DNA of 57,132 nt, filler included, from Ionaspis alba (Eukaryota), in the NCBI GenBank assembly GCA_964255285.1. It is 4 parts of 4 records of this genome, joined end to end, with 100 filler letters (N's around TTAATTAATTAA, not from the genome) between each part and the next. Parts side by side here need not be neighbours in the genome. Positions count along the whole stretch, not along the records: positions 28,641 to 42,840 come from CAXUUL010000432.1; 3 more parts are not named here. One strand, given 5' to 3'. A program made the translations under genes and the position numbers. The notes under the pieces are model-generated. The model ran no database searches and was not told where the DNA came from. It saw only the letters and a list, made by a program, of their open reading frames with translations. This document shows, in pieces, positions 14,239 to 42,940 of this stretch; the stretch's first letter is position 1; the number at the start of each line of letters is the position of its first letter.

Positions 14239-14338
14239 NNNNNNNNNNNNNNNNNNNNNNNNNNNNNNNNNNNNNNNNNNNNTTAATTAATTAANNNNNN
14301 NNNNNNNNNNNNNNNNNNNNNNNNNNNNNNNNNNNNNN
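14239..14338. other. Artificial contig linker N44-TTAATTAATTAA-N44
   Basis: Six-frame stop 12-mer at 14283-14294, flanked by 44 N on each side. Confidence 0.97.
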
Positions 14339-28540: not shown

Positions 28541-28640
28541 NNNNNNNNNNNNNNNNNNNNNNNNNNNNNNNNNNNNNNNNNNNNTTAATTAATTAANNNN
28601 NNNNNNNNNNNNNNNNNNNNNNNNNNNNNNNNNNNNNNNN
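28541..28640. other. Artificial contig linker N44-TTAATTAATTAA-N44
   Basis: Same structure as the linker at 14239; 12-mer at 28585-28596. Confidence 0.97.
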
Positions 28641-28853
28641 CAGACCCATTCCGGAGTATCTCAAAGCATTCTAAGTGCCGGATTCCAAAGCTCTCCCACA
28701 CTCTGACACACAGGCTATGCAAGGTTGTAAAGGTTAAAGTACATCAAGCATCGTCAAGCCTTTTTCGTCAAACGCGATCTTTCCCCGAAGTAGAGAAGTG
28801 AAGCTTCATGTAAATTGCTCCATGAACATATGCTTTTATACCCCTTCTCCAGA

Positions 28854-29567
28854 TCAATAGCCAACACCGACGAGGTAGTCGGCCAACTGCTCTACGGTCG
28901 TGGCTGCGGCACCAGGCTGGACGGTTTCGGGGTAGTGGGTGATGAGGATGGCTTGGGTGGTTTTGACGATCATGATGCCCTCTTTGCCCTATAGTCCCAA
29001 ATTATAAGCTTAAAAAACAGTTAGGGTTTTAGTTCAAGGATTGTACCTTCTTGCCGTATATACTCCGGTCCTCGGCCTTAATCACCACATATCTTTCCCC
29101 GGCCACATGCACTCCTGTGCTCTGGACCTTCTTCACATCGCCAGTGTCCTTGTAGGCGCTGACGATCTCCTTCAACTCCTCTGGTTTCACCTGTCATCAG
29201 AACCTGTCAGACCATTCTTGCCAAGCCCGTCATCTTCGGACAGCTCTCGAAGGTGCATGGAAGCAAAATTCCCTCTTATCTGACGCATGAAGTACTTCGT
29301 GGTAGTGTCATACGTACGCTGAATCCTTTTGAGGATGCCCACTCGCTATCCCCCGCTGCGCTGAAAATGGCCGCCTTGTCGATGTTGCCTGTCCCGACAA
29401 GACCGTAGGAGAGTTTAGCTTCATGCTGCGGAGCAGGTCAAGGGGAGGGAGGTGGTACCTGGTATCGACGTATGCTGTACGATGAGGGTGAGTCAGCCTT
29501 CTCCACGAAAAGGAAGAGGGTGATGGGACTCTGGAACGGGGGGTTGCTCCGTACCTTGCCACGACAT
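28854..29567 (-). CDS. PFY1: Profilin (5 short exons)
   Basis: Spliced MSWQ|AYVDT|...[36 protein letters not shown]...[62 protein letters not shown]. Missing from the ORF track. Confidence 0.96.
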
Positions 29568-31658
29568 TGCAAATTACTACTTCCTTGTTCTGGCTTGACG
29601 GCGCAGGAGATCTTATGGTTTCCCTAAAGTAGCCTTTGGTTTGAGAAGAAAAAAGCAAGTTGATGGTGCGCTTGTTATTGGGTGGATAGGCTTGCAGGAG
29701 ATGGGGCAGCCTAAATGCAGATGGGTATGATAATGTGGAAGCTGGGTTTTGGTTTTGGTGGGGGTTTTTTTACGAGCAGAAAACAACCCCCCCGCCGCCT
29801 AGAGAATGAGGCATCCTTGGTTCAACGCACAACCCCCCGCTGCCTTTCGCAGAACCATGCAATCGATCAGAGGACGGTGCCTTATCACGCATGCAGCTTA
29901 CATACATCGACTGCATGACGGTAATAGTAACGACAACATCAGACTCGGATCCTCTGGGAAGTATCTATCGGGTGACCGTCACCTGGACTTGAGCGCCATC
30001 AGGTCAAGTTGCTCCACACATTTCCTCCATTATTGCGCAATAAGCCGCCGGGACCGTTGGTACCTTGAACTTATGGGTGACGTGACAGCGGTAGCTTACA
30101 GCAGCAGAGACAGCACGAGGAGGCCGTTGCGTGACCACCAGGATACCCATTCCTGGCCACAGGATCCATCATCTCACGAGAACAACGATGCTTCTAGGAC
30201 AGAATTGCCGTGCAATCTCTCTCTCCGGCATAAGAGTTCGAAGTTTCGGACGAACTGACTCTGCATGCTCCAATGTAGCACGCATAGATTGGTACCTTTC
30301 GTGGCTTTTTCAGCAGTCCCTGCCTTGTATGCACAACGTCCACATGGCTTGAATCTTGTCATCTTCCCTGCCGGATACGACGATAAGCAAAGCGACATTC
30401 GCCTTCGACGTCGATGCAGCTCGAGCATCACGCTCTTCCTCCACATGCACACGCCGCTCAAGTCGGTGGAAGCTTATTGATCCATCAAGGCCGTGCCCCC
30501 TTCGCTCTCATTTCGGTGAAGGGGCCGTCTCATCAAAGGCCAACAGCTGAAACACCAATGATAGAGCCTGCCATACAACCCTTCCACCACCTCGTGTGCT
30601 TTATCCTCCAACATTTTGACCTCTCCCGCCCATGTCTGACCGTGTCTACTTCCCTAGATTTCCTTCGCTGGCGAATCTCTGTGGCTTTTCCTCCACACCA
30701 TTCGTCGGCTCCCGGCCATTCTAAGTTCCACCTTGTTTGCTTCAGCCCTCACTAGGCACAGCTGAGGTGGAGGTCAAATTTCTACAGCAAACGCGCAAAA
30801 GACAGTGGAAGTGTGGAAGACTTCGATACGGCGTACATGCCCTGCCATCAGGTCCAGTCTGTGCTGACGCATACACACCAGGGAACTGCCCAGCGGTGTA
30901 GTTTCATCTTCATTTCTCTAGCCGCTTCATGCCTACCATTGATCGTCCGGAGTTTTGCCAATCCCCCTCCTGCATTGTGCCAATCTCTCCGTTCCTGCGG
31001 CCCTGGGCCGAACCCAATGCTCCATTTCGTATTTCCATCAATCTCCGCCATGCTTTGCCTGCATCGTTGGGTTGCCGTTGCGCCTCTACCTTCCCTGCGA
31101 ATATCAAGCAGCACTGCTCCTTGTGGCGATCCCTCCCCCTCAAATTATCCTTTCATCTATTCTCACTAGATCGCAGCTTAGATCCTAGCTAGGATTCGTC
31201 CCTTCCTGCTGACTTCACTCTGTTCTCTCNNNNNNNNNNNNNNNNNNNNNNNNNNNNNNNNNNNNNNNNNNNNNNNNNNNNNNNNNNNNNNNNNNNNNNN
31301 NNNNNNNNNNNNNNNNNNNNNNNNNNNNNAGCTTAGATCCTAGCTAGGATTCGTCCCTTCCTGCTGACTTCACTCTGTTCTCTCGACGTTCGTTCTCTTG
31401 GATGTACCTTCGTAGCGAATTCGTTCTGTTACTCCCTTACGACATCACGAAGTCCTCCCACGCCTAAAGACATCGATTACATTTTTTACCCTGCAATATT
31501 CTTATTTATGGTTTGCGAGAGACATACAGAAGCCCCACAACGAATCCTCTCAGAGATTACCATGCCCATTGCTCTAATTCTATAGCTGCTACGAACGTAC
31601 ATAAAGAGCAGTCCTCAGACCCGATATCTATATTGACCTATTCTTTGTTGGGTTGAGT

Positions 31659-33703
31659 ATGGTGAAGGGATCCGGTGCGCTTGCTAGAGTACGCTCTTTC
31701 CGTTCGAAACCAAGCAGAGAAGCCTTCGACAAACCAGATGAAAATCCAGCAACTATCACTGTTTCCACAGTTGTTCATACCGAGGCGGAACCGAACACCC
31801 AACAACAGGACTCGTCGCGGACATCACCCTCTTCCAACCATTTGGGTAACAGCAGCCCTCGACGAGGCATGGCGATAGATCAGGAACCTACATTTATGTC
31901 TCCACAGAAGATAGCGGCTCAACAGAGGAACCTCGATGCTCAACGACCGCCACACCTGCAGTTGTCGAAGAATCATCATGTAGTGGAGGAGGATATGATT
32001 GGAATGGCGCTGGGAAGTCCAAGTCAGGGTCCTTTCCCTATACTGCCCAGTAGTGCTCCGACTACCAGGCCTTCGTTCACCGACAGCACGTTGGGTTCTT
32101 CTGCTTCCAGCCAAGCATGGCCTGGCGATTCACCATATACGGAGGAAGCTATCAAATTGAAAGGGAAATGGAAGATGTTCGGAGGCATTTTTGGAAAGAA
32201 AGGTGTCGCATCACCCACATCGCCATCTTCACAGTTCTATCAGTTGCAGCTCTCTCCTGCTTTGTCGGATCAAGATTCTCAAGCTAGTCCAGCTCAGACT
32301 CCATCTCCTCGAGGAGCTCGCGGTTTCCTTCACCATGGGGACTCTGGTAGTGCCAATGGAGATGCTACAAGGAAGAAGTTGAGGAGCCGAAAGGAATCTC
32401 GTCCAGAAGTCAAGCCAGATATTGTACGAGCAAAGAGTACACCGCTAATCCGAAATGAAAGACAACTGCCCACTCCTCCACCTAAAGATTCTCAGCCAGA
32501 TAGGAGAAGTCCACAGCTTTGGACAGATGGAAAGCCCATGATGCTCCAGGTGGAGATACCAGACGTTGCAATGGAACGTTACAGCATTATGTTTGGAAAT
32601 GTCCTACAGCAAAGGCCACCCTCGTTGATGGTACGGAGGCAAGCGCCATTGGAGAAGCTAAAGTCGCTCGGCAATGACAAACATGAAACGGTACAGAAAA
32701 TTGCTCTCTAATTGCCCGAGACTAGTGTATTGATCTTCAATAGCCTGAATATTCGGCTTCGAGCGATAGCCTGCTGAGACCGACCCGACGAGCGACTTCG
32801 CCCTCGCCTAGGGCCAAATCACCTTGTTTCTCTCTCTTCCCACCGTCCTCTCCAGATCCCAACCGAGGTGCATCGCCACAACCTTCTCGTAGAGCAATAC
32901 CACTCTCTCGCTCTGCTACAGCTCCTGGATCTCTTTCCCCTGCTCGGGCCACTTTTGATTTCGCGACGCCTACTTCTCGAGATAACGACAGCCACGAGAT
33001 CAAATTGCACCACCCGAGGCTACCTTTCGGCCCGCCAGACCACTCAAATGAGAGTATAGACTCTACGACTATTACTTCAATATCGGGCGATTTCAAGAGC
33101 GCTCACGCTGCCCCTACTTTCCCTGACGAAACGCTCGTTACGCCTCAGATCATTACATCACCGCCGCCATACAGTTCTTCTATATCACATGATACCCGTT
33201 CTAATGATTCACATTCGAGTCAACCATCCCCGAGAAGTTCATCGCTTCCTGAGAACCACCCAAGCCATATCCAGCACAAGACCGCCAATGTCGTAGATCA
33301 TCCAATCAACAGCAACACAAACCCGCCTCACGCACCTGTCCAGAAAAGTTCTCCAAAAAAACAATCTGACAGACCCGTCTTCAAACCACGCACAAGCTCT
33401 CAAAGTCCCAGAGATCTCCCTAGACCTATCAACGCACCCCATAGCATCTACAGCCCTCATATCCAGAATCCGTTATCCTCGTCTCCACCATCTGCGGCCG
33501 AAATATCTGTTGCGCGACAGATCTCGGTGTCGCGTCGACAGCAGCAACTCTTGGTGCCTATAACGCCAAAGACAGTGCGGCCGCCGAAAAGAGCTACGAT
33601 TGTGGATGTGGATGCCCAGGCTGATGGGGATGCGGGTGGGAACGGAGGCAAGACGGGGCATGTGAGTCGAAAAAGTCATCATTTGATTGTTGAAGAGGCT
33701 TGA
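31659..33703 (+). CDS. Uncharacterised Ser/Pro-rich fungal protein (2 exons)
   Basis: ORFs 31653-32711 and about 32743-33703 can be joined by a GT..AG intron at about 32691-32742. Short conserved-looking islands: IGMALGSP, WKMFGGIFGKK, LQVEIPDVAMERYSIMF and EISVARQISVSRRQ. Confidence 0.7.
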
Positions 33704-34598
33704 TTGGGTGGCGATCTTTTCGGGTCTTGCTTCTTCGTGCTTTGCGTTGGGGAGAATGGGCAGCAGGGTTCTAGGATTTCGCATGTGTGTAGGCATTTTC
33801 TTGTTACAGCATCTTGGGAGGAGAAGCTTGTGGTTGATGGGGATGTGAGATGCATAGCGAAACTTTGGCTGGAACATCGTCACGCTGTGCTGTTCTTCGA
33901 TTGGATTGTTTGTACTGCATCGCTTTGGATGGGTGACGATGTTTGACGGGAACTCGAGACCGATAGTGTTCTTGCTGGCGATTTCTCCATGGCTTTTTAA
34001 GTTATATTATTCCCCCATTGTACAGGATTGGAGAAATTGAGAAGACTTTGTGCAGATATCTGATCACCGTTCTTTGCACCGTTTCATTCTGCTGGTCCAT
34101 TAGAATCGTAAATTGATATAAATTTAAATCTATGGACAGTACGTGGAAGTACTGCGATTATTGGCCTAGATTCTGTCATCTGTAGCTTCAAACGCAAAGC
34201 TTTACCAATCTCTGGTGCAATATGATACCCAATGTTGAAGAAAAGATATATTGCAGAGCCGCACATGATTGCAGCTAGGCACGTGACACTTGTAGACCGC
34301 ACACCCACTAGTCGTCCGCGGCATAACATGCTCGGGATCTATGTTCCATCAGCTTCCCTCACAGGTATGTATAGAGTCTTGCCCTCATAGATGGCGCCTC
34401 CTTGCTAATAAGAGATAGTGTAAATATGTCATGCCATAGCACTGCATCTCTTCGAAGGACAATTGAGCTGTTCAACCGCTAAAGACTGGACCCACGCAGT
34501 GCGTCCCACACATATTCGAAGCTCGTCAGAGAAGAAAACATTCAGCCCAACGTGCAGGCTTGAGTGACCTGTGAACATATGAAAACCCGTCTTAGATC

Positions 34599-36503
34599 AT
34601 GGAGGACATGCCATTCGCTGCCAATGGCATCACAGAGGCGGAAACTTTAGCCAATGCTCCCTCAGGAACCAAATCTCCCCACGATGGAGGAGTCGAAACC
34701 GAATCGAACAATCCTCCGCCAGAGATGAGCTCAGAAGAACTACCAGTACCAAAACGAGACATTAGTGATCTGCGCAACCCATTGCCCAACCTTCTAGAAA
34801 TGCGCCGGCGCCTTTTCGAAGTCAGAGAGACGATCGAGCTCAAGGTCGATGAGTTCGAGCGATATTGGCCCTATGTCGATAATGTATGGGTGAGGCAGCA
34901 CAGAGCCGGCACAGACAAAAGTGGTCGGATCACTACGGATTACTATGCTTGTCGCCTGCAACGGCCAACCTATACGCCGCGAAAAGCGCCGCAAGAAAGA
35001 CCAGATGGCAAGCCATTGCGCAAGAAACAGACCAGGGAGGGCGGCACATGCCAAATGCGAATCAAAGCCGTGCGCTACGAGGGCGGGTTTTCCAAATACA
35101 CCATCACCAAAGTCGGTGCCCACGAACATACACACGATCTGGACCACATGGACAGCATCAAGCGCAATACCGTGGTCATGGAAATCGCCCGCGCGGAAGT
35201 CATGAAAGGCTTCATGCCCGCCTCCGTCTTCACCATTATGAGCGAAGACGAAGCCAAGCTCGCCGCAGCAGGTGGCCGCCACCTCAATCGCAACGACGTC
35301 CGCAACGCCTCCCAATCCTGGCGACAAACCCACCGGGACGCACTGAACGTCCACCCAGGCTACAAATACGACCACGGTAACGGCATCGTGCGGGACGAGT
35401 CCTTCCCTCCACCTCCGATACCACAGGCTGCACCCGACCTCAGTATGCTCGACCCAGCTCTAGTCCCGTCTCCACCGCTCCCCACACCACCCACCTCGAC
35501 ATCCACCTCTCTCCTCCCTCCAAATGCGCTACACTTCCCACCCCAAACCGCCTCTCTCCTCGACCCCTATCTCCCACCCACCGACACAGCCCTCTCCCCT
35601 GGTAGCCTCCCCTTCGTAACCCTCACCTACGCCACCTCCCTCGACTCCTTCCTCGCCATAGCACCCGGCACCCAAACCCACCTCTCAGGTCCCGGGTCCA
35701 AAGCACTAACGCACTACCTCCGCGCCCACCACGACGCAATCCTCATCGGCGTCGGCACAGCACTAACCGACAACCCCACCCTCAACTGCCGGCTCGCCGG
35801 CGCCGGTGGCTATGGCGGTGTCGGGTGGGACTCACAGCCGCGCCCCATCATCATCGACCCCGGGGCACGCTGGCTTCTGACGCCCGACTCCGCGGTCCTG
35901 CGGGCCGTGGCAGAGGGGCGGGGAAAAGCACCGTGGATAATCATCGCGCCGGGCTTCGCGATCGATCCCGCGCGACTGGAATTGCTGAAATACTACGGTG
36001 GGAAGTACGTCGGCTTGCCGGAACTGGATAAGAAATACCGGCTCAGCTGGGAAGGCATTTTCCGGGCTTTGGCCGCCGAGGGGATCAGAAGCGTGATGGT
36101 TGAGGGCGGGGGCGTGGTGATTAATGAGTTGCTGCAGCCGGAATACAAGGAATTGATTAGGAGTGTGGTTGTTACGGTTGCGCCGACTTATCTTGGCACT
36201 GGGGGGGTGGTGGTTTGTCCGAGTAGGAATTTGGATGAATTGGGGAGGCCGAGGCCGGTGGTTAGGTTTAGGGATGTTAGGTGGGTGCCCCTAGGGGAGG
36301 ATGTGGTTATGTGTGGGAGGCTGGGCAACGGGGAGGCAAACGCGGGAGAGCGGGGCCAGGTGAATGAGGTGGAACAGCGAGTGAGGGAGGAGGATGGAGT
36401 GCAAGATGGACAGGAGGCTGAAGGTTCTAGGGGGATGGATGAGCAAGGGGGAGAGCTGGGTGCGGCGAATAATGTTGTAATGGGCAAGAGCTTGACGCTG
36501 TGA
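34599..36503 (+). CDS. Fusion protein: N-terminal Mutator/FAR1/WRKY-like C2H2 DNA-binding domain + C-terminal RIB7/RibD_C pyrimidine reductase
   Basis: Single 634-aa ORF. The C-terminal half has PFVTLTYATSLD, THYLRAHHDAILIGVGTALTDNPTLNCRL, PRPIIIDP and SVMVEGG. The N-terminal half has YYAC-x32-C-x25-HTH. A Pro-rich linker joins them. Confidence 0.85.
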   Translation: MEDMPFAANGITEAETLANAPSGTKSPHDGGVETESNNPPPEMSSEELPVPKRDISDLRNPLPNLLEMRRRLFEVRETIELKVDEFERYWPYVDNVWVRQHRAGTDKSGRITTDYYACRLQRPTYTPRKAPQERPDGKPLRKKQTREGGTCQMRIKAVRYEGGFSKYTITKVGAHEHTHDLDHMDSIKRNTVVMEIARAEVMKGFMPASVFTIMSEDEAKLAAAGGRHLNRNDVRNASQSWRQTHRDALNVHPGYKYDHGNGIVRDESFPPPPIPQAAPDLSMLDPALVPSPPLPTPPTSTSTSLLPPNALHFPPQTASLLDPYLPPTDTALSPGSLPFVTLTYATSLDSFLAIAPGTQTHLSGPGSKALTHYLRAHHDAILIGVGTALTDNPTLNCRLAGAGGYGGVGWDSQPRPIIIDPGARWLLTPDSAVLRAVAEGRGKAPWIIIAPGFAIDPARLELLKYYGGKYVGLPELDKKYRLSWEGIFRALAAEGIRSVMVEGGGVVINELLQPEYKELIRSVVVTVAPTYLGTGGVVVCPSRNLDELGRPRPVVRFRDVRWVPLGEDVVMCGRLGNGEANAGERGQVNEVEQRVREEDGVQDGQEAEGSRGMDEQGGELGAANNVVMGKSLTL

Positions 36504-36770
36504 ACGACTGGGAGCTAATCTATTGGGCCGGGGGTTTCGAAATTCATGGTCTTTGCAGCGGGAGTTGAGAGATGTCTTAGTTGCAGAGCTTCTACTTAGA
36601 TGCTACTGACTTCTTGCTCTAAGAGCTTTACGATATCCATCATACGCTTGCAAACAGCCGTAGCTGATTGCTGGGTATCTCTGAGAACATAATCAAAGCC
36701 ACATGCGCCAGTTCGCTGTGAGCGTCACCCTCCTGAATCAAGCTGCCAGATAGGTGAAGATACGGACAGC

Positions 36771-38498
36771 TCAGTCCTCTTTGACCTCAGTGTCCTTCGC
36801 ATCCACCATCTCAAAATCATGCTCTGCATCCTTCTCCTTGTTCTTTGCATCCTCTTCCTCCTCATCGTCAGTATCCTTCATCTCTTCGTCCCCATCAACA
36901 CGAGCTCTGTGCTTTCCACGAAGCTTTACCTCCCCAGGAAGAATCTCACGCAGGCTCAAATCAACCTTGTCAACCGTTTCTTCTTCAGCACCAGGGGCAT
37001 TAGCCGCCAATCCGAGTTGAGCCAAGTGCTTGCCACGACGAGGTTTGAGCTGGATCTTCGATTTGATGGGATAGAAGTAGGCAGCCTTCTGGCGAGGAGC
37101 AGGTCCTTCTTCGTCTCCAACGGTGGCAGCGTGGGCGATATCATCCTCGTTCTCGGAGTCGTGGAGCGCAATGACGACTTCCTCATAGGGATCCTTAGCC
37201 TGAGTGCGTAAGCCGGTTTCATAGTCGCGGACGAGATCGTAACGGAAAGAGTCCTTCTCGCCGCCCTCGGAAACGTTGGTGTACAGCGCGGGATCGGTAT
37301 GGTCAGGATCATGCACATCAAACTTCTTCTTGATGTTCTCCACCTTTGCGTCCTCGTTTGGAAGATAGAAGCTGTAGGTGAAGGGCGGAGGACCAGGGTG
37401 CGGAACGTGTTCGCGGTCGGCTTTGTGAGCTTCGTGCTTGGTGGTCCATTGCGCGATCTGCTCATCACCGAGAGCGTGGTGACGAAGCAGTCCAACATCC
37501 ATGCGCTCATCGTGTTTGTCAGTGACGTCGGTGGGCTGACCAGCGATTTTCAGGACAGTGTAGCCTCCATCATCAGTGAAGCCATCGAGATCGGGAATGA
37601 GAGGATAGAAGTCGACGGGCTTGAGGTGAGGTTTTGTGGGATGAACGGGATTGTTCCATGCATCGAGCTCTGCTGGAGTGGGGTTGGCTCCACGCACGTT
37701 CTCCTTCGTGTCTGGCCCTTTGTACGCGTCTTCGGGGTTGGCAATGTCGAAGCTTTTGATCACTTCGCGTAGCATGTTCTGAGGGTCATCTTTTGAGTAA
37801 TGCTTGGCCGGACGACGCTTTGGTGGATTGGCAGCATTCGCAGCAGCTGCTGCTGCACGACGTCCTGGATCTTCTGCCACGTATTGAGTGCGACGTAAGA
37901 AGCTGATCCCACCGGCTTCGGTTTTGGGTTTGCCCATAGACTTGAGAGGTCGTAGCAGCTTACGGTCGCGTGGATGGACGGGAGGTGGAACGAGCGGTGC
38001 TTGAATAGCTATATATATACGATCAGTAAAGTGAACGTCTGGTCGAGTTTTGCAATGGCCAAGTGCATTGGGTCACATACAGCTCTCGTCACCATGAAAG
38101 ATGCCGGGCATCCCAACCAAATCGATCGGCATACCCAAAAAGGCATCAGCTTCAATGTTCGGAGGCTGCTCGCGGATGAGACGGTTGGCGTAGGCCGGTG
38201 AGGTATACTTCGAGAGACCTTCATACGGAATCTCGAGAAGCTTCGGAGCTCCCGGTGGAGGTGGAAGAGCATTGCTGTAGCGTTGACGAACAATGTAATC
38301 TTGGTGGACGACGCGCTCTTGACGTTGACCTTTGGGGTCAGCCATGGTATCAGTATCCTCGAGAGTGGGCTCGGGCGGAGTGTAGTGTTCGTCGTTCTCA
38401 AGAGTCTGGTCTGAAGGTGTGATCTCTCCTTCGTCGAACTCGATCTCAAACACACCTTCGACAGGAATCGAAGCTGCTTTGCCGGTGTTGTCCGCCAT
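36771..38498 (-). CDS. PAF1: RNA polymerase II-associated factor Paf1
   Basis: HQDYIVRQRYSNALPPPPGAPKLL, DAFLGMPIDLVGMPGIF and SFLRRTQY. Intron near 38000-38077. The start is either 38498 or 38345. Confidence 0.92.
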
Positions 38499-38817
38499 TT
38501 TTCGAAGCACTATGGAAGAAAGACGGACCGGAACGCTTGGCTCTGTCTGAGTGGAGGGTGAAGCGAACAGGCTAAAACTTTTGTGTGTGGACATTAGGGT
38601 TCAGCAGAGGCGCGCATGAAGTCTTGGCGATCTACGCGACTTCAAAGACTATCAAAGCATTCAAGGCAACACAGCTTTAGAATAGAGTCCAAAGCCCGTG
38701 TAAATCGGTTTGAGAGCTCAGCTCTTGGGTACTGCAATGATTCAGATTGTTTGCTGAATTATCTTTTGCACCAAATCTAGTATGTTACCTAGAACTACCG
38801 ATTTGTAAAGCAAATAA

Positions 38818-41151
38818 CTACCATGACCACATACACTTATATGGCAAGAGTCTTGCTCCCAGCCTATCATATTCCATCCGACTAATCCAGCTATCGTTCG
38901 TTCCTCTCAGCTTGCCAAAAACACTTGCACCTTTCCAGACTACACCCTGAGGATCTAATTCCCTTGGTGGAGTACCAATCATAATGTCCTTCGCAAATCC
39001 AGGTCGCGTAAGCTTCAACTTCTCCTCAAGAAATGTGTAAAAGCCCGGGATCTGAGACCCGCCTCCAATGACCATAATGCCGCCGAGGAAATCTCGGGTC
39101 TTTCGTTCCTCGTTTCGTGCACCGTGTAGGATAGAAGTCAGGATAGCAGTATCGAGGCTGATGATCGGGAGGACGTCATCTCTGACAGAGGCGGCAAGAG
39201 TATTGACCGAGTCCTTCACATTTCCCTCATTCGCTGGTCCTGGTGTCTCGTCGCCTTCTGGCGCTGGGGAGCCAAGATTGGAGGATGGCAGATTCTCTGG
39301 TTCGGCAAATCGGCTGAGCGAGCCAGGAAGTTGACGAACTGGAGTCGACGCTGCGAAGCTGCCACTAGTATCACCGTTCGTAGATGTGTCTTGCCCATTA
39401 GTGCGTATTTGTGGACTAATCATCTGCATGATGGCAGACTGAGCAGATGATACGGGATCATTTGGCGATCCGTCATAAAGGTCCTGAGATGGCCCTATGA
39501 GCTTCCGCCGGCCCTTAAGCTTCTCTGAATGATCAAACAACGAGGGCTGGAAGAAGCCCTGTGGTGCTAAGAGGACTTCGTCGTATGTTTTGAAGGTGTA
39601 TTTTCTGGTATCCTGACCAAAAACTCTGAGGTGAAAGTCGAATAGCTGGACACTTATGTCGGTTTCATTCATGGTGAGAAATTTGGATTTGATCTCTTCG
39701 GCGAGTAGGAAATCGTAACGGCGCTTCAGATTGATGTCTGAATATGGAAAGTGATCAAAGAGCATCATTCTCATGAACGTATCAGTGACATCCCATCCAC
39801 CATATTTGATGTTTACTCGAGAATTCTCGACACACATGCCTTCTTCGACACAGCATACTGAGGTCTTCTGAGCTCCAATATCTACCACACAAGCCTGGGT
39901 ATAGCCGGCACCGAAAGTAGCAGCAAGACTCTCCTGGATAAAACACACCCGGCCAAACCCAAAATCTCGCATAAGCATTTCGAGGATTTGAATCACATAC
40001 TGTCGTTCGTATAGATCAGGAATCACAAAGACACAGCCGCACTGAGCCCAGTCCCTCTTCTGCCGAAGATTCAACTGTTGTTTGATTGCCTCCTCTATGA
40101 TAGTCGATATGTCCTCATACAGTAGAGTCTTGCTGTCGTAATCGTTTTCATTGTACCAGCCCCTTTGTAATGGCCAGAAAAGTTTGTACCTTGGTCGAGA
40201 ATCATCTGGGATCCTCAGAGCCTCTTTCCCTGTGAATACCTCGGGTGCTTCCCTAGGATTCTTTGGAATCTCCGTCCAATCAATTCGCAATGGATCGTTG
40301 TGCTCGGAAATTATCTCTGGTACTGTCCGCTTGTTATAGTTGACCACAAGCTCTTTAGAATTAGGTAAGACTCTCCGCTTGTTAGCCCGCATGTGTATCT
40401 TCAGGTCAGCGCACATTGTGTTGTATTGTGTTGCGAACTGCTCTAGCATCAGCATATACGTTCAGCCTCTGGAAGTTGGTACCATACATCCTGACCAAAC
40501 AGTTTCTCCGGCTCGGGATAAGATCCATTTTCTAGCTTTTGCCTTTTTGGGAGAGGTTCTGCGCCGTGCTCCTCAGACTCGCTGCATTTCCATTTCCTAG
40601 CAACCACCATTGGTACTGTCTTGGGAAGTGCATCACTTGCAAGCCCAATTCGTAGGTTCTGACTACCAGGATGTATTACAATAACTTTGCTTCCCGAAGC
40701 GTCTTGATCGCCAGATGTACCTCCGAGCTCATCCAGACCAGCCTCATCGTCGATATCCATGTCAACATCAGGAGGAAGCTCATTTGGTCGTGCTTGAGCA
40801 AGTGCTCGATCTCGGTCCTTCGCATTTGCAGTCATACGGTTTCGACGCTCCTCTTGGAGCAGACGTAGTGGTAGTATCTGGTCGTCACGCTTCAGGTACT
40901 CCCTATGGCGCAGAGCAATCAGCATCATTCCAAACTCGTGAAGCAGCAGTACTGCGCAAATACTCTAGGCGTACTCACGTGTAATAATTCTTCTGGTTGA
41001 TCATGTTGACCTGAGGCCAGGAGGTGAGGTCCATATTATTGTCAGTCCTCTCAAGACCTATAGCCCTTCTGTTAGATTTAATTTTGTAGCGAATTGAGTT
41101 GTTCTTACCCTCCTCCCGTAGGAGGGCCTTTCCAGATTTTTTGCCCACCAT
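38818..41151 (-). CDS. ARP8: Actin-related protein 8 (INO80 complex)
   Basis: MVGKKSGKALLREEG, INQKNYYT, IVIHPGSQNLRIGLASD, IQESLAATFGAG, VVDIGAQKTSVCCVEEG and WKGASVF. Three introns. Confidence 0.95.
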
Positions 41152-41704
41152 ATTGAAAATGACATGAGCTTCTGGCGACTCGAATAATGCCTCAGAAATA
41201 TCTTATTGACTGAGTGTTCTCACGTAAGTGCACCCCCACCAAAGACGGCTGTATGTTTGTGACAGTCGCGCTCGGAATACTAGCAGGGTCCACATGCATG
41301 TCGTTCAGCGCCAAGAGCCACTCCCCGTAATTTACAGAGTGTAAGGGTCGTCGAGACTACGATATTCGCGTACGATTACCAGATATCTTAATGATCTTTT
41401 TCTAGTATGGTATCTCTATACCCGAAGCACTTGACTGGTTGTCTACGTATGACTATTTCTACACGTACAATGTTCTCAGAAGCAGGAACTCCAAATGACA
41501 GAAAGTAGATTATAGCCGCAGGTCAATGGGCAGTAAACGTCGAATGGATGGAGTAGGATCAAGATAGACTAAATAAACCACAAAAGCTACGCAAACCTCG
41601 ATACAGATACCCGCAAAAGAGCTGCAAATTGAGCGACCAGCGCCTTCCGCACAGAGGAATAAAACCCACTACTCTCACACATAGTCTCACAATTTTTCGG
41701 GCCA

Positions 41705-42840
41705 CTAAATGTCCTCTGGCGCCTCCACATCCGGACTCATGGGCAGATACCACAAACTGATTCTCGTCGCCAACTTCCAATAATCCTTCGGATCTGTCGC
41801 TCCAGCCTCGGGCTCCGACGACTCATGCGAGAACATCACCCCATTCCAGATATCGAAATGGCCCGATGCCGGCGCAGTACCACCAAACGCAATATCAAAG
41901 GCGATGATGCCGTTATGATTGACTAGCTCAGGATGATCGGCAGGGTTAAAATCCTCGCCAGATCTTTTGTTTTTGATGTCGAAGTCAGGCTCGCCCCAGA
42001 TGGTTGTGAGATATTTGCGCATTTCCTTGACGCGGATAGCGTATGGACGGCCGTCTTTGCAGATGATGGTCAGAAGGCCGTTGAACTTGCCGGGCTTCGG
42101 CAGGAGAACGCCAGAGTAATTCAAGCCGCGGGAGATACGCATGGTGCACGTGTTAGAGAACGCGCTGTTGTTGACCCAAGCGTCATTGAGAGCCCTGAGA
42201 ACTTCTGTGCTATTGGGATGCGAAGCATAGTCCCAATCTTCTCTCTGGAAAGTTTGGAAGTCTGGACGCGGTCGCCTTGCCCCGTTCGCAGCCACGTTAG
42301 ATGCTAAAATAGCACTTTCGGGCATTCCAAAGTTGAGAAGCACGGAACCTTCTGTGGTCGAAGCCTCGAGAGACGTCGGAGCACCATTGTCAGATGCTTC
42401 TTTGGCTGATTTGATGATGCTTTGAATGGCTGGGTCCTCGTGAGGGGCTTTGGCGGGCTGGGAGCCAGACATGTCCTGGAGCACTTGGACGGCTTGTTTC
42501 TCAGCTTCGGCATTAGGAATAAGTTGCTTGTCCTTCGCACGAGCAATGGAAGCCAACTTCTTGTCAGCGTCCGCGACAGCCTGCTGCTTGCCAGCGGTGT
42601 CGGCCATCTTGAGCGCTGCAGCAGATGCGCCAAAGCTGGTGGCGAGCGAAGTGGCGGCTGTCAGTCCCGCTGTAGCTAACTGCTGCGTTCCGGCAAGGCC
42701 AGCCATGTCACGGAATGCATTGGCGTTCTGCACAGCATTCAGGGCACCTGCCACCCCTTGAGGTCCAGGAGCAGGTGTAGCGTTGGACAGATTGATGATC
42801 GTGGATGGGAAGGGTGTGGGATCTGTCTTCGGTGGATCTG
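41705..42840 (-). CDS. 5'-truncated large protein ending in a Tae4-family (T6SS amidase effector, NlpC/P60-like) peptidoglycan endopeptidase domain
   Basis: The frame is open to the contig end. The C-terminal ~180 aa read RPDF...FSNTCTMRISRGLNYSG...DGRPYAIRVKEMRKYLTTIWGEPD...GIIAF...ASGHFDIWNG...ISLWYLP. This is collinear with the Tae4 pattern as I recall it (RPSF...NAC-x-IRMS...Y-x-x-RV...YL...G-x-PD...KGII...GH-x-x-LWNG...LW-x-LP). Confidence 0.85.
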
Positions 42841-42940
42841 NNNNNNNNNNNNNNNNNNNNNNNNNNNNNNNNNNNNNNNNNNNNTTAATTAATTAANNNN
42901 NNNNNNNNNNNNNNNNNNNNNNNNNNNNNNNNNNNNNNNN
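42841..42940. other. Artificial contig linker N44-TTAATTAATTAA-N44
   Basis: Same structure as the other linkers; 12-mer at 42885-42896. Confidence 0.97.

Follow-up and report, generated by a model that had tools for sequence, protein, structure and literature searches.

The DNA discussed here is a window from Ionaspis alba (assembly GCA_964255285.1), i.e., the whole stretch that was analysed, of 57,132 bases. Its subject is a gene on the minus strand whose last 377 codons lie between position 41705 and a scaffold end at 42840, and whose product ends in an amidase domain of the Tae4 family. That a gene derived from a bacterial tae is truly integrated in this fungal genome is an observation. 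What is visible is probably the 3' end of a bacterial gene of ~1450 codons, taken up whole by an ascomycete ancestor, and the protein would be an antibacterial weapon with a Tae4 end that cuts peptidoglycan. The initial annotation had described a fungal gene with a bacterial end. Its proposal of a bacterial origin is supported, and the description itself has to be revised, as the entire protein of ~1450 amino acids (aa) is bacterial in type: the long part in front of the amidase, here called the carrier, has relatives in 78 bacterial and archaeal loci, and the 12 Tae4-ended carriers among the rows analysed form one clade.

Residues 188–377 of the visible translation P0001 (41708..42277, minus strand) form a Tae4-family papain-like amidase domain, as assigned by Pfam, by sequence matches to the Protein Data Bank (PDB) and by fold. 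An intact domain of this type had been annotated, and the check by hidden Markov model (HMM) agrees: Pfam Tae4 (PF14113) covers residues 227–338 with 69.3 bits (E 4e-19), above the curated cut-off of 27. A phmmer search against PDB sequences returned Tae4 chains only (4hfk with E 9.6e-9; 4j30, 4hff and 4jur with ~1.4e-5), in alignments pairing N-T-C with N-A-C and S-G-H with T/R-G-H of solved Tae4 proteins. An AlphaFold model was made from a 66-row alignment on P0010, a protein of 776 aa from a public assembly that is 100% identical across all 377 visible residues. Its predicted local distance difference test score (pLDDT) was 81 on average and mostly 84–97 over residues 590–770. All 11 Foldseek matches in the PDB at E <= 0.001 were Tae4-family effectors (best 4hfk, E 2.5e-10, template modelling (TM) score 0.78). 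Against 48,161 chains, VIA-align gave 4jur_A a Z of 16.8 (root-mean-square deviation 2.5, 152 of 161 residues aligned) and Serratia Ssp1 (4bi3_A) a Z of 15.6, the next unrelated row reaching Z 8.4. The comparison by AlphaFold and Foldseek that had been proposed as a check consequently returned the Tae4 fold.

The predicted catalytic residues, Cys231 in the motif N-T-C (42146..42148, minus strand) and His327 in S-G-H (41858..41860, minus strand), lie at exactly the positions first annotated, and both align to their counterparts in solved Tae4. From the alignment, Glu339 in the motif S-H-E (41822..41824, minus strand) is a candidate third catalytic residue. All three columns are invariant in a 15-row alignment (A3). 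Of 14 fungal-type Tae4 rows, all have the His, 13 have the Cys and 13 an acidic residue at the S-H-E position; Trematosphaeria, which sits on a long branch, has Ser then Cys where the other fungal-type rows have Cys. Family, fold and residue conservation, together with the precedent of the Nematostella homologue nvDae4, make it likely that the enzyme cleaves peptidoglycan, and an antibacterial role is likely as well.

The gene is fungal because it shares a stretch free of Ns (31330–42840) and equal depth with ARP8 and Paf1, has a host-like base composition at third codon positions (GC3) and has relatives in other fungi. The ARP8 gene (38821..41151, minus strand; Pfam Actin; PDB Arp8 8a5d_U, E 1.6e-191) is split by introns over several frames and lies 553 bases downstream of the stop codon, across a spacer at 41152..41704. 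The Paf1 gene (36774..38600, minus strand; Pfam Paf1, E 1e-40 and 1.8e-19), which encodes a eukaryote-only factor, is spread over two frames; the same stretch also contains a RibD_C gene. The earlier placement of the gene in fungal DNA, ~550 bp from an intron-bearing ARP8 and with no gap in between, therefore stands. The host is a lichen-type ascomycete, since the closest named ARP8 proteins, those of Icmadophila (79% identity), Lambiella (76%) and Xylographa (76%), are all from Lecanoromycetes.

In sequencing run X1, possibly made from the source sample itself, contig depth was 108.4 for ARP8 and 112.8 for the gene, and allele pairs were present in the spacer (window 41431–41731, depths 68 and 58.8) as well as at window 38332–38571 (depths 49 and 63). 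Run X2 of the same study contained near-identical pieces of ARP8 and the gene at depths of 2.5–4.5; both data sets are contigs, and so attest that the pieces are present and the depth is even but give no independent proof of linkage. The X1 contig versions differ by 15–18 letters and small indels, suggesting two haplotypes or two close strains. The GC3 of the gene is 0.59, compared with 0.40–0.66 for its neighbours, and six of seven sampled bacterial homologues lie at 0.77–0.96 or 0.35–0.38, the seventh (L033) at 0.69. The correlation of relative synonymous codon usage was discarded as a test of origin, being uninformative with a value of only -0.01 between ARP8 and Paf1. Moreover, relatives of the gene (P0249, P0011) and of ARP8 (P0263, P0264) are located on contigs of equal size (2,133,853 and 18,230 bases), and reading these as the same contigs suggests that the neighbourhood of both genes is kept in related fungi.

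Only the last quarter of the gene is visible. The window comprises four scaffold pieces of 14,238, 14,202, 14,200 and 14,192 bases, connected by artificial joints at 14239–14338, 28541–28640 and 42841–42940 (each 44 N + TTAATTAATTAA + 44 N), across which features are not readable. The gene is on the third piece (28641–42840), which has a gap of 100 Ns at 31230–31329. Its minus-strand frame ends with the stop codon TAG (41705..41707) and is open for 377 codons, to 42838. As the frame runs off the scaffold at 42840, being still open at the last bases 42839..42840 that precede the joint at 42841..42940, the gene is cut at its 5' end, and its 5' three quarters lie outside the window; a tblastn search found no second piece within the whole window. 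The joining of four scaffolds had gone unremarked in the first reading. The statement that the gene lacks introns holds only for the 377 visible codons; further upstream, two relatives carry a spliceosomal intron.

A search for longer proteins gave 62 relatives. PF14113 is present in ten, among them the named fungal proteins from Trichoglossum hirsutum (1459 aa), from Cadophora sp. (1433 aa) and from Purpureocillium lavendulum (1860 aa). Cluster look-ups added Pseudogymnoascus australis (1490 aa), Rhexocercosporidium sp. (1261 aa) and Trematosphaeria pertusa (1311 aa), and in four of these six named ascomycetes the gene is held by contigs of 1.6–4.2 Mb. Fungal databases name the relatives “hypothetical” and, in one case, “acetyl esterase”. 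In the latter, the Purpureocillium protein P0015, the match to Tae4 stops at residue 1387, a low-complexity tail rich in Lys and Glu follows, and the annotation apparently fuses the Tae4-ended gene with an unrelated downstream gene.

In addition, a metagenome scan with the Tae4 part kept 80 loci of 275 relatives, among which L119 and L142 are the only ones fused to the carrier, both with introns. Aligned to the protein of Trichoglossum, both show a break with a change of frame between residues 513 and 514. At the break the DNA reads AAG C/GTAAGT...CTAAT...CAG/GA in L142 (~58 nucleotides (nt), phase 1) and AAG C/GTAAGT...ACTAAT...CAG/GG in L119 (~50 nt, phase 1), the slashes marking the intron ends. 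Judged by these signals, the break is a canonical fungal spliceosomal intron; it sits inside the carrier, between “TLAPRQTK” and “RIQKIEW”, where the bacterial consensus is uninterrupted. The closest relative is 86% identical over 776 aa, near the 88–89% of ARP8 in seemingly the same assemblies, and the frames are open in all, a pattern that purifying selection produces.

The first 187 visible residues (42278..42838, minus strand) comprise the end of the carrier and a helical linker, which forms long helices in the model. By phmmer, they match carrier open reading frames (ORFs) of prokaryotes up to about residue 125–184 of P0001. The long-protein matches other than the fungal ones are bacterial (1400–1870 aa), align only with the first ~170 visible residues and end in DUF2272 or GH25. 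Our prokaryote scan, with one genome per species, yielded 78 carrier loci from Acidobacteriota, Actinomycetota, Chloroflexota, Gemmatimonadota, Bacteroidota, many Pseudomonadota (above all Marinobacter) and two ammonia-oxidising archaea of the Nitrososphaeraceae (L002, L027), a family that lacks peptidoglycan.

Of 77 C-terminal ends, 60 entered a Pfam scan at E <= 0.001; the remainder were four near-duplicates and 13 loci that were weak or partial. DUF2272 was found at 19 ends, OmpA-like domains at ten (six over the curated score), GH25 at two (both from the same metagenome-assembled genome, MAG), beta-lactamase-like domains at two, and Amidase_2, Peptidase_M15_4, Peptidase_C70 and tyrosinase at one each, while 23 ends had no Pfam match. 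Families tied to peptidoglycan (DUF2272, OmpA-like, GH25, Amidase_2, M15_4) account for 33 of the 37 matched ends, and one study places DUF2272 in the papain-like group of NlpC/P60, CHAP and amidase enzymes (PMC10318531). Ends other than a wall hydrolase, namely tyrosinase, AvrRpt2-like Peptidase_C70 and beta-lactamase-like, were seen at L019:4842-6314, L030:5928-6461 and L001:4296-5588. As read from these domain matches, the carrier family is a conserved long part with an exchangeable end that is mostly directed at peptidoglycan.

Phylogenetic analysis separates the Tae4-ended carriers from all others. A quick tree of 69 rows and 916 columns, with 12 Tae4-ended carriers (six from named fungi, six unnamed) and 57 from prokaryotes, placed the 12 in one clade with a support of 100 in the Shimodaira–Hasegawa-like approximate likelihood ratio test (SH-aLRT). 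In a careful tree of 42 rows and 638 columns, which kept all 12 together with 30 of the 57 prokaryote rows spanning the clades, this clade received 100/100 and was intact in 200 of 200 bootstrap trees. The prokaryote part clashes with taxonomy, e.g., in placing an archaeon beside Acidobacteriota, and the borders of phyla and domains seem to be no barrier to the carrier gene. The order within the fungal clade does not follow class, with Leotiomycetes in three places, and losses, paralogues or further transfers must therefore be part of its history. The Tae4 part alone, searched against 1.84 billion representatives, matched 355 proteins at E <= 0.001. The best matches outside the fungal type were stand-alone proteins of 164–174 aa with 40–45% identity, which share S-H-E and “ATRISLW”, one of them from a Pseudomonadota MAG. 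In the poorly resolved tree of Tae4 domains (138 rows, 150 columns), all 14 fungal-type rows fall in one clade of 30 rows (SH-aLRT 95), and 12 of them in one group of 14 rows (91), which does not by itself establish one origin for the domain.

Full-length fungal relatives (1261–1490 aa) consist of a carrier of ~1200 aa, a helical linker and the Tae4 domain. In the structure models, a pair of beta-sandwiches at the N terminus is followed by a conserved middle, an alpha/beta part that includes a PLAT/LH2-like sandwich, a helical stalk of ~60 residues and the enzyme. The PLAT/LH2-like sandwich resembles LOX1 (Z 8.4, borderline) and lipoprotein lipase (Z 7.8), and its Foldseek matches reach E ~0.02. 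The N-terminal part, two generic beta-sandwiches with Z <= 7.1, gave weak pilin-like Foldseek matches. All these matches were rejected as identifications, as they stand at the level of common arrangements only. The middle is modelled by AlphaFold with pLDDT <50 for most of residues 335–630 of the L008 protein. Within this middle, a Gly-rich hydrophobic run with Ser-rich flanks, consensus AGGxGFAxGxxVIGGGA, is conserved in all carriers (e.g., in L008:7988-10267), and it could be a membrane-inserting element.

In the bacterial locus L008, scanned whole, and in L033, scanned upstream and downstream, the carrier gene is solitary among unrelated or housekeeping genes, and no type VI, secretion or phage-tail genes were seen. 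A conserved neighbour was not found, the best family occurring in six of 57 loci (blastp, E 1e-8), a search that small or fast-evolving immunity genes could escape. In Ionaspis, too, no immunity gene lies downstream, in agreement with the first reading: the spacer holds only an ORF of 73 codons (41559–41780) that overlaps the end of the gene. Since fungi have no peptidoglycan, none would be needed. That neither the fungal nor the archaeal carrier hosts have peptidoglycan also speaks for an offensive role and against a housekeeping one.

Taken together, these data suggest the following course. A whole bacterial gene for a large, self-contained, wall-attacking protein would have entered the ascomycetes, gained an intron and the base composition of its host, and been kept with the Tae4 amidase as its active end. 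The protein would present, from its N to its C terminus, two beta-sandwiches, a core with the Gly-rich hydrophobic stretch, a PLAT-like sandwich, a helical stalk and the exchangeable enzyme. The Cys-His amidase would then cut bacterial peptidoglycan, by analogy at the gamma-D-glutamyl-meso-diaminopimelate bond. We infer that bacteria are the target, perhaps the associated bacteria or cyanobacteria proposed in the first reading, and that the carrier may serve to reach them.

Several findings weigh against this interpretation. Tae4 was absent from all 60 prokaryote ends scanned with Pfam, and phmmer found none in the carrier ORFs of the 78 loci, so either the donor form is unsampled or the Tae4 fusion arose later. 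Two weak Tae4-like phmmer matches (E 2e-4 and 5e-4, in a small search) were observed at L033:16158-17225 and from L032:16964 onward, each in a separate ORF ~3 kb downstream of a Marinobacter carrier, and may be due to chance. Secondly, searches of Pfam, NCBIfam, PHROGs and PADLOC assign the carrier to no family, and its fold likeness is only of a generic beta-sandwich or PLAT-like kind. The carrier profile A2 had no match against the PDB at E <= 10, a BFVD search gave none at E <= 0.001 and the ESM Atlas returned only unnamed bacterial clusters. Thirdly, by a rough Kyte-Doolittle check, five full-length fungal relatives lack a strongly hydrophobic stretch within their first 40 residues. Inspection by eye or rough hydrophobicity likewise gave no evident signal peptide at the N termini of 14 bacterial homologues; bacterial and fungal proteins begin directly at the first sandwich. 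Fourthly, the third catalytic residue of solved Tae4 is an Asp, and Glu339 is offset by +1 from that aligned position. Finally, all five called proteins of the Ionaspis lineage (P0010, P0011, P0248–P0250; 758–793 aa) begin at a similar internal point, near “VDTEF...RPFTQ”, where other fungi read through. This shared start could reflect a lineage-specific intron or a truncation.

An alternative option, which we regard as unlikely, is that the Tae4 domain was repurposed in fungi for an amide or isopeptide bond outside peptidoglycan, e.g., in self/non-self cell death or intracellular protein processing, and that the carrier was kept for that function. A protein with no evident signal peptide and a carrier conserved as a whole in fungi would suit such a role, some prokaryote ends are not peptidoglycan enzymes (tyrosinase, Peptidase_C70), and polymorphic toxin domains have been recruited to fungal incompatibility, as a survey of these toxins states (PMC3482391). 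However, the Cys/His/Glu set and the Tae4 fold have been kept, the Pfam-matched prokaryote ends are predominantly of peptidoglycan-tied families (33 of 37), and the one eukaryotic Tae4 homologue tested still cleaves peptidoglycan (PMC8713801).

Quite improbable is a truncated or decaying remnant in the present genome, of which only the last ~776 codons are open and from which no working product is made. The internal start shared by the five called proteins, at lengths well below the 1261–1490 aa of other fungi, would fit such decay, as would the mere 377 codons visible in the window. Yet the 776 aa are open and 86% identical between lineages in which ARP8 is 88–89% identical, as under purifying selection, and an upstream intron would give the same calls, as prokaryote-style gene callers stop at introns, which is seen at L142 and L119. 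Scarcely credible is an assembly artefact or contamination, i.e., a bacterial fragment misjoined to a fungal scaffold, although the gene has bacterial relatives and sits right at the edge of a short scaffold in a fragmented assembly of an apparently mixed lichen-type sample, since no Ns separate it from ARP8, depth is equal, allele pairs occur in the spacer, GC3 is host-like, relatives of both genes share contig sizes, six named fungi have the gene, and the fungal copies carry introns and form their own clade.

If the gene is indeed a peptidoglycan-directed weapon of bacterial origin, it may serve lichen and soil fungi as an antibacterial effector, and it provides a natural experiment in which a large carrier works without a bacterial partner, making its role in delivery testable. 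The carrier relatives would represent a new family of exchangeable, wall-degrading proteins that is widespread among the bacteria and archaea of soil. A broader proposal, tentative and on balance doubtful, is that they make up a class of self-sufficient single-gene antibacterial toxins, with exchangeable wall-degrading ends and no secretion system, immunity partner or signal peptide, by which lichen and soil fungi control resident bacteria. Such autonomy, if real, would explain the spread of the carrier over bacteria, Nitrososphaeraceae archaea and at least five ascomycete classes.

Domestication of tae genes by eukaryotes is already established in animals and protists. Dae proteins are short and secreted, with a secretion signal in tick Dae2. 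In the fungal gene, as in the Dae proteins (tick Dae2, nvDae4), a bacterial tae-type gene has become fixed in a eukaryote genome with its catalytic residues retained; in contrast to them, the host is a fungus and the protein keeps a bacterial carrier of ~1200 aa, and its full-length relatives show no evident signal peptide. The Tae4 homologue nvDae4 of Nematostella cleaves peptidoglycan and kills bacteria (PMC8713801), and the Tae4 of Giardia muris is reported to be a recent lateral acquisition (PMC7641422). A literature search outside the founding paper of Chou et al. (2015), which is not known to list fungi, turned up no report of a fungal Tae4 or of the carrier. New here is a Dae-like acquisition in fungi that retains a large, undescribed bacterial carrier.

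Two bacterial toxin types resemble the carrier family in their organisation. Pesticin and colicin M are peptidoglycan-targeting bacteriocins built of receptor, translocation and killing parts. Their likeness appears to be one of layout only, a single polypeptide with binding-like N-terminal domains and a wall-degrading end, and the PDB and fold searches found no relation to the carrier in sequence or fold; a layout of this kind, if it holds, would explain how a weapon works without a secretion machine. With bacterial polymorphic toxins, as characterised in the survey (PMC3482391), the family shares a conserved long N-terminal part, C-terminal modules swapped at a fixed junction and a carrier tree that clashes with taxonomy. 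It differs from them in that the gene is solitary, with neither a conserved immunity gene nor a conserved partner, and in that no known trafficking domain and no evident signal peptide were found in the carrier.

The Tae4 effectors of type VI secretion (from S. Typhimurium, E. cloacae and A. tumefaciens, and Ssp1 of Serratia) have in common with the fungal domain the family HMM, the fold (Z 16.8 and 15.6) and the aligned Cys and His. Identity to them is just 21–26%, the fungal domain ends a protein of ~1450 aa whereas the effectors are stand-alone proteins of ~160 aa, a Glu one position on replaces the Asp, and the fungal gene has neither a type VI system nor a Tai4 neighbour. The fungal domain falls instead in a subclade of stand-alone proteins from soil metagenomes that carry the S-H-E motif. 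The type VI context invoked in the initial annotation describes the solved namesakes and does not extend to the nearest relatives: four stand-alone bacterial Tae4 loci with 42–45% identity are surrounded by housekeeping genes and show none of type VI within 5 kb. A conserved ORF of ~220 aa without a Pfam family was observed directly upstream of stand-alone Tae4 genes (L084:6648-7307, L088:6814-7485), which makes it a possible partner or immunity gene. Tae4 domains, as seen by eye, also close other bacterial toxins, namely the RHS-like P0170 and P0171, the latter with a zincin-like motif.

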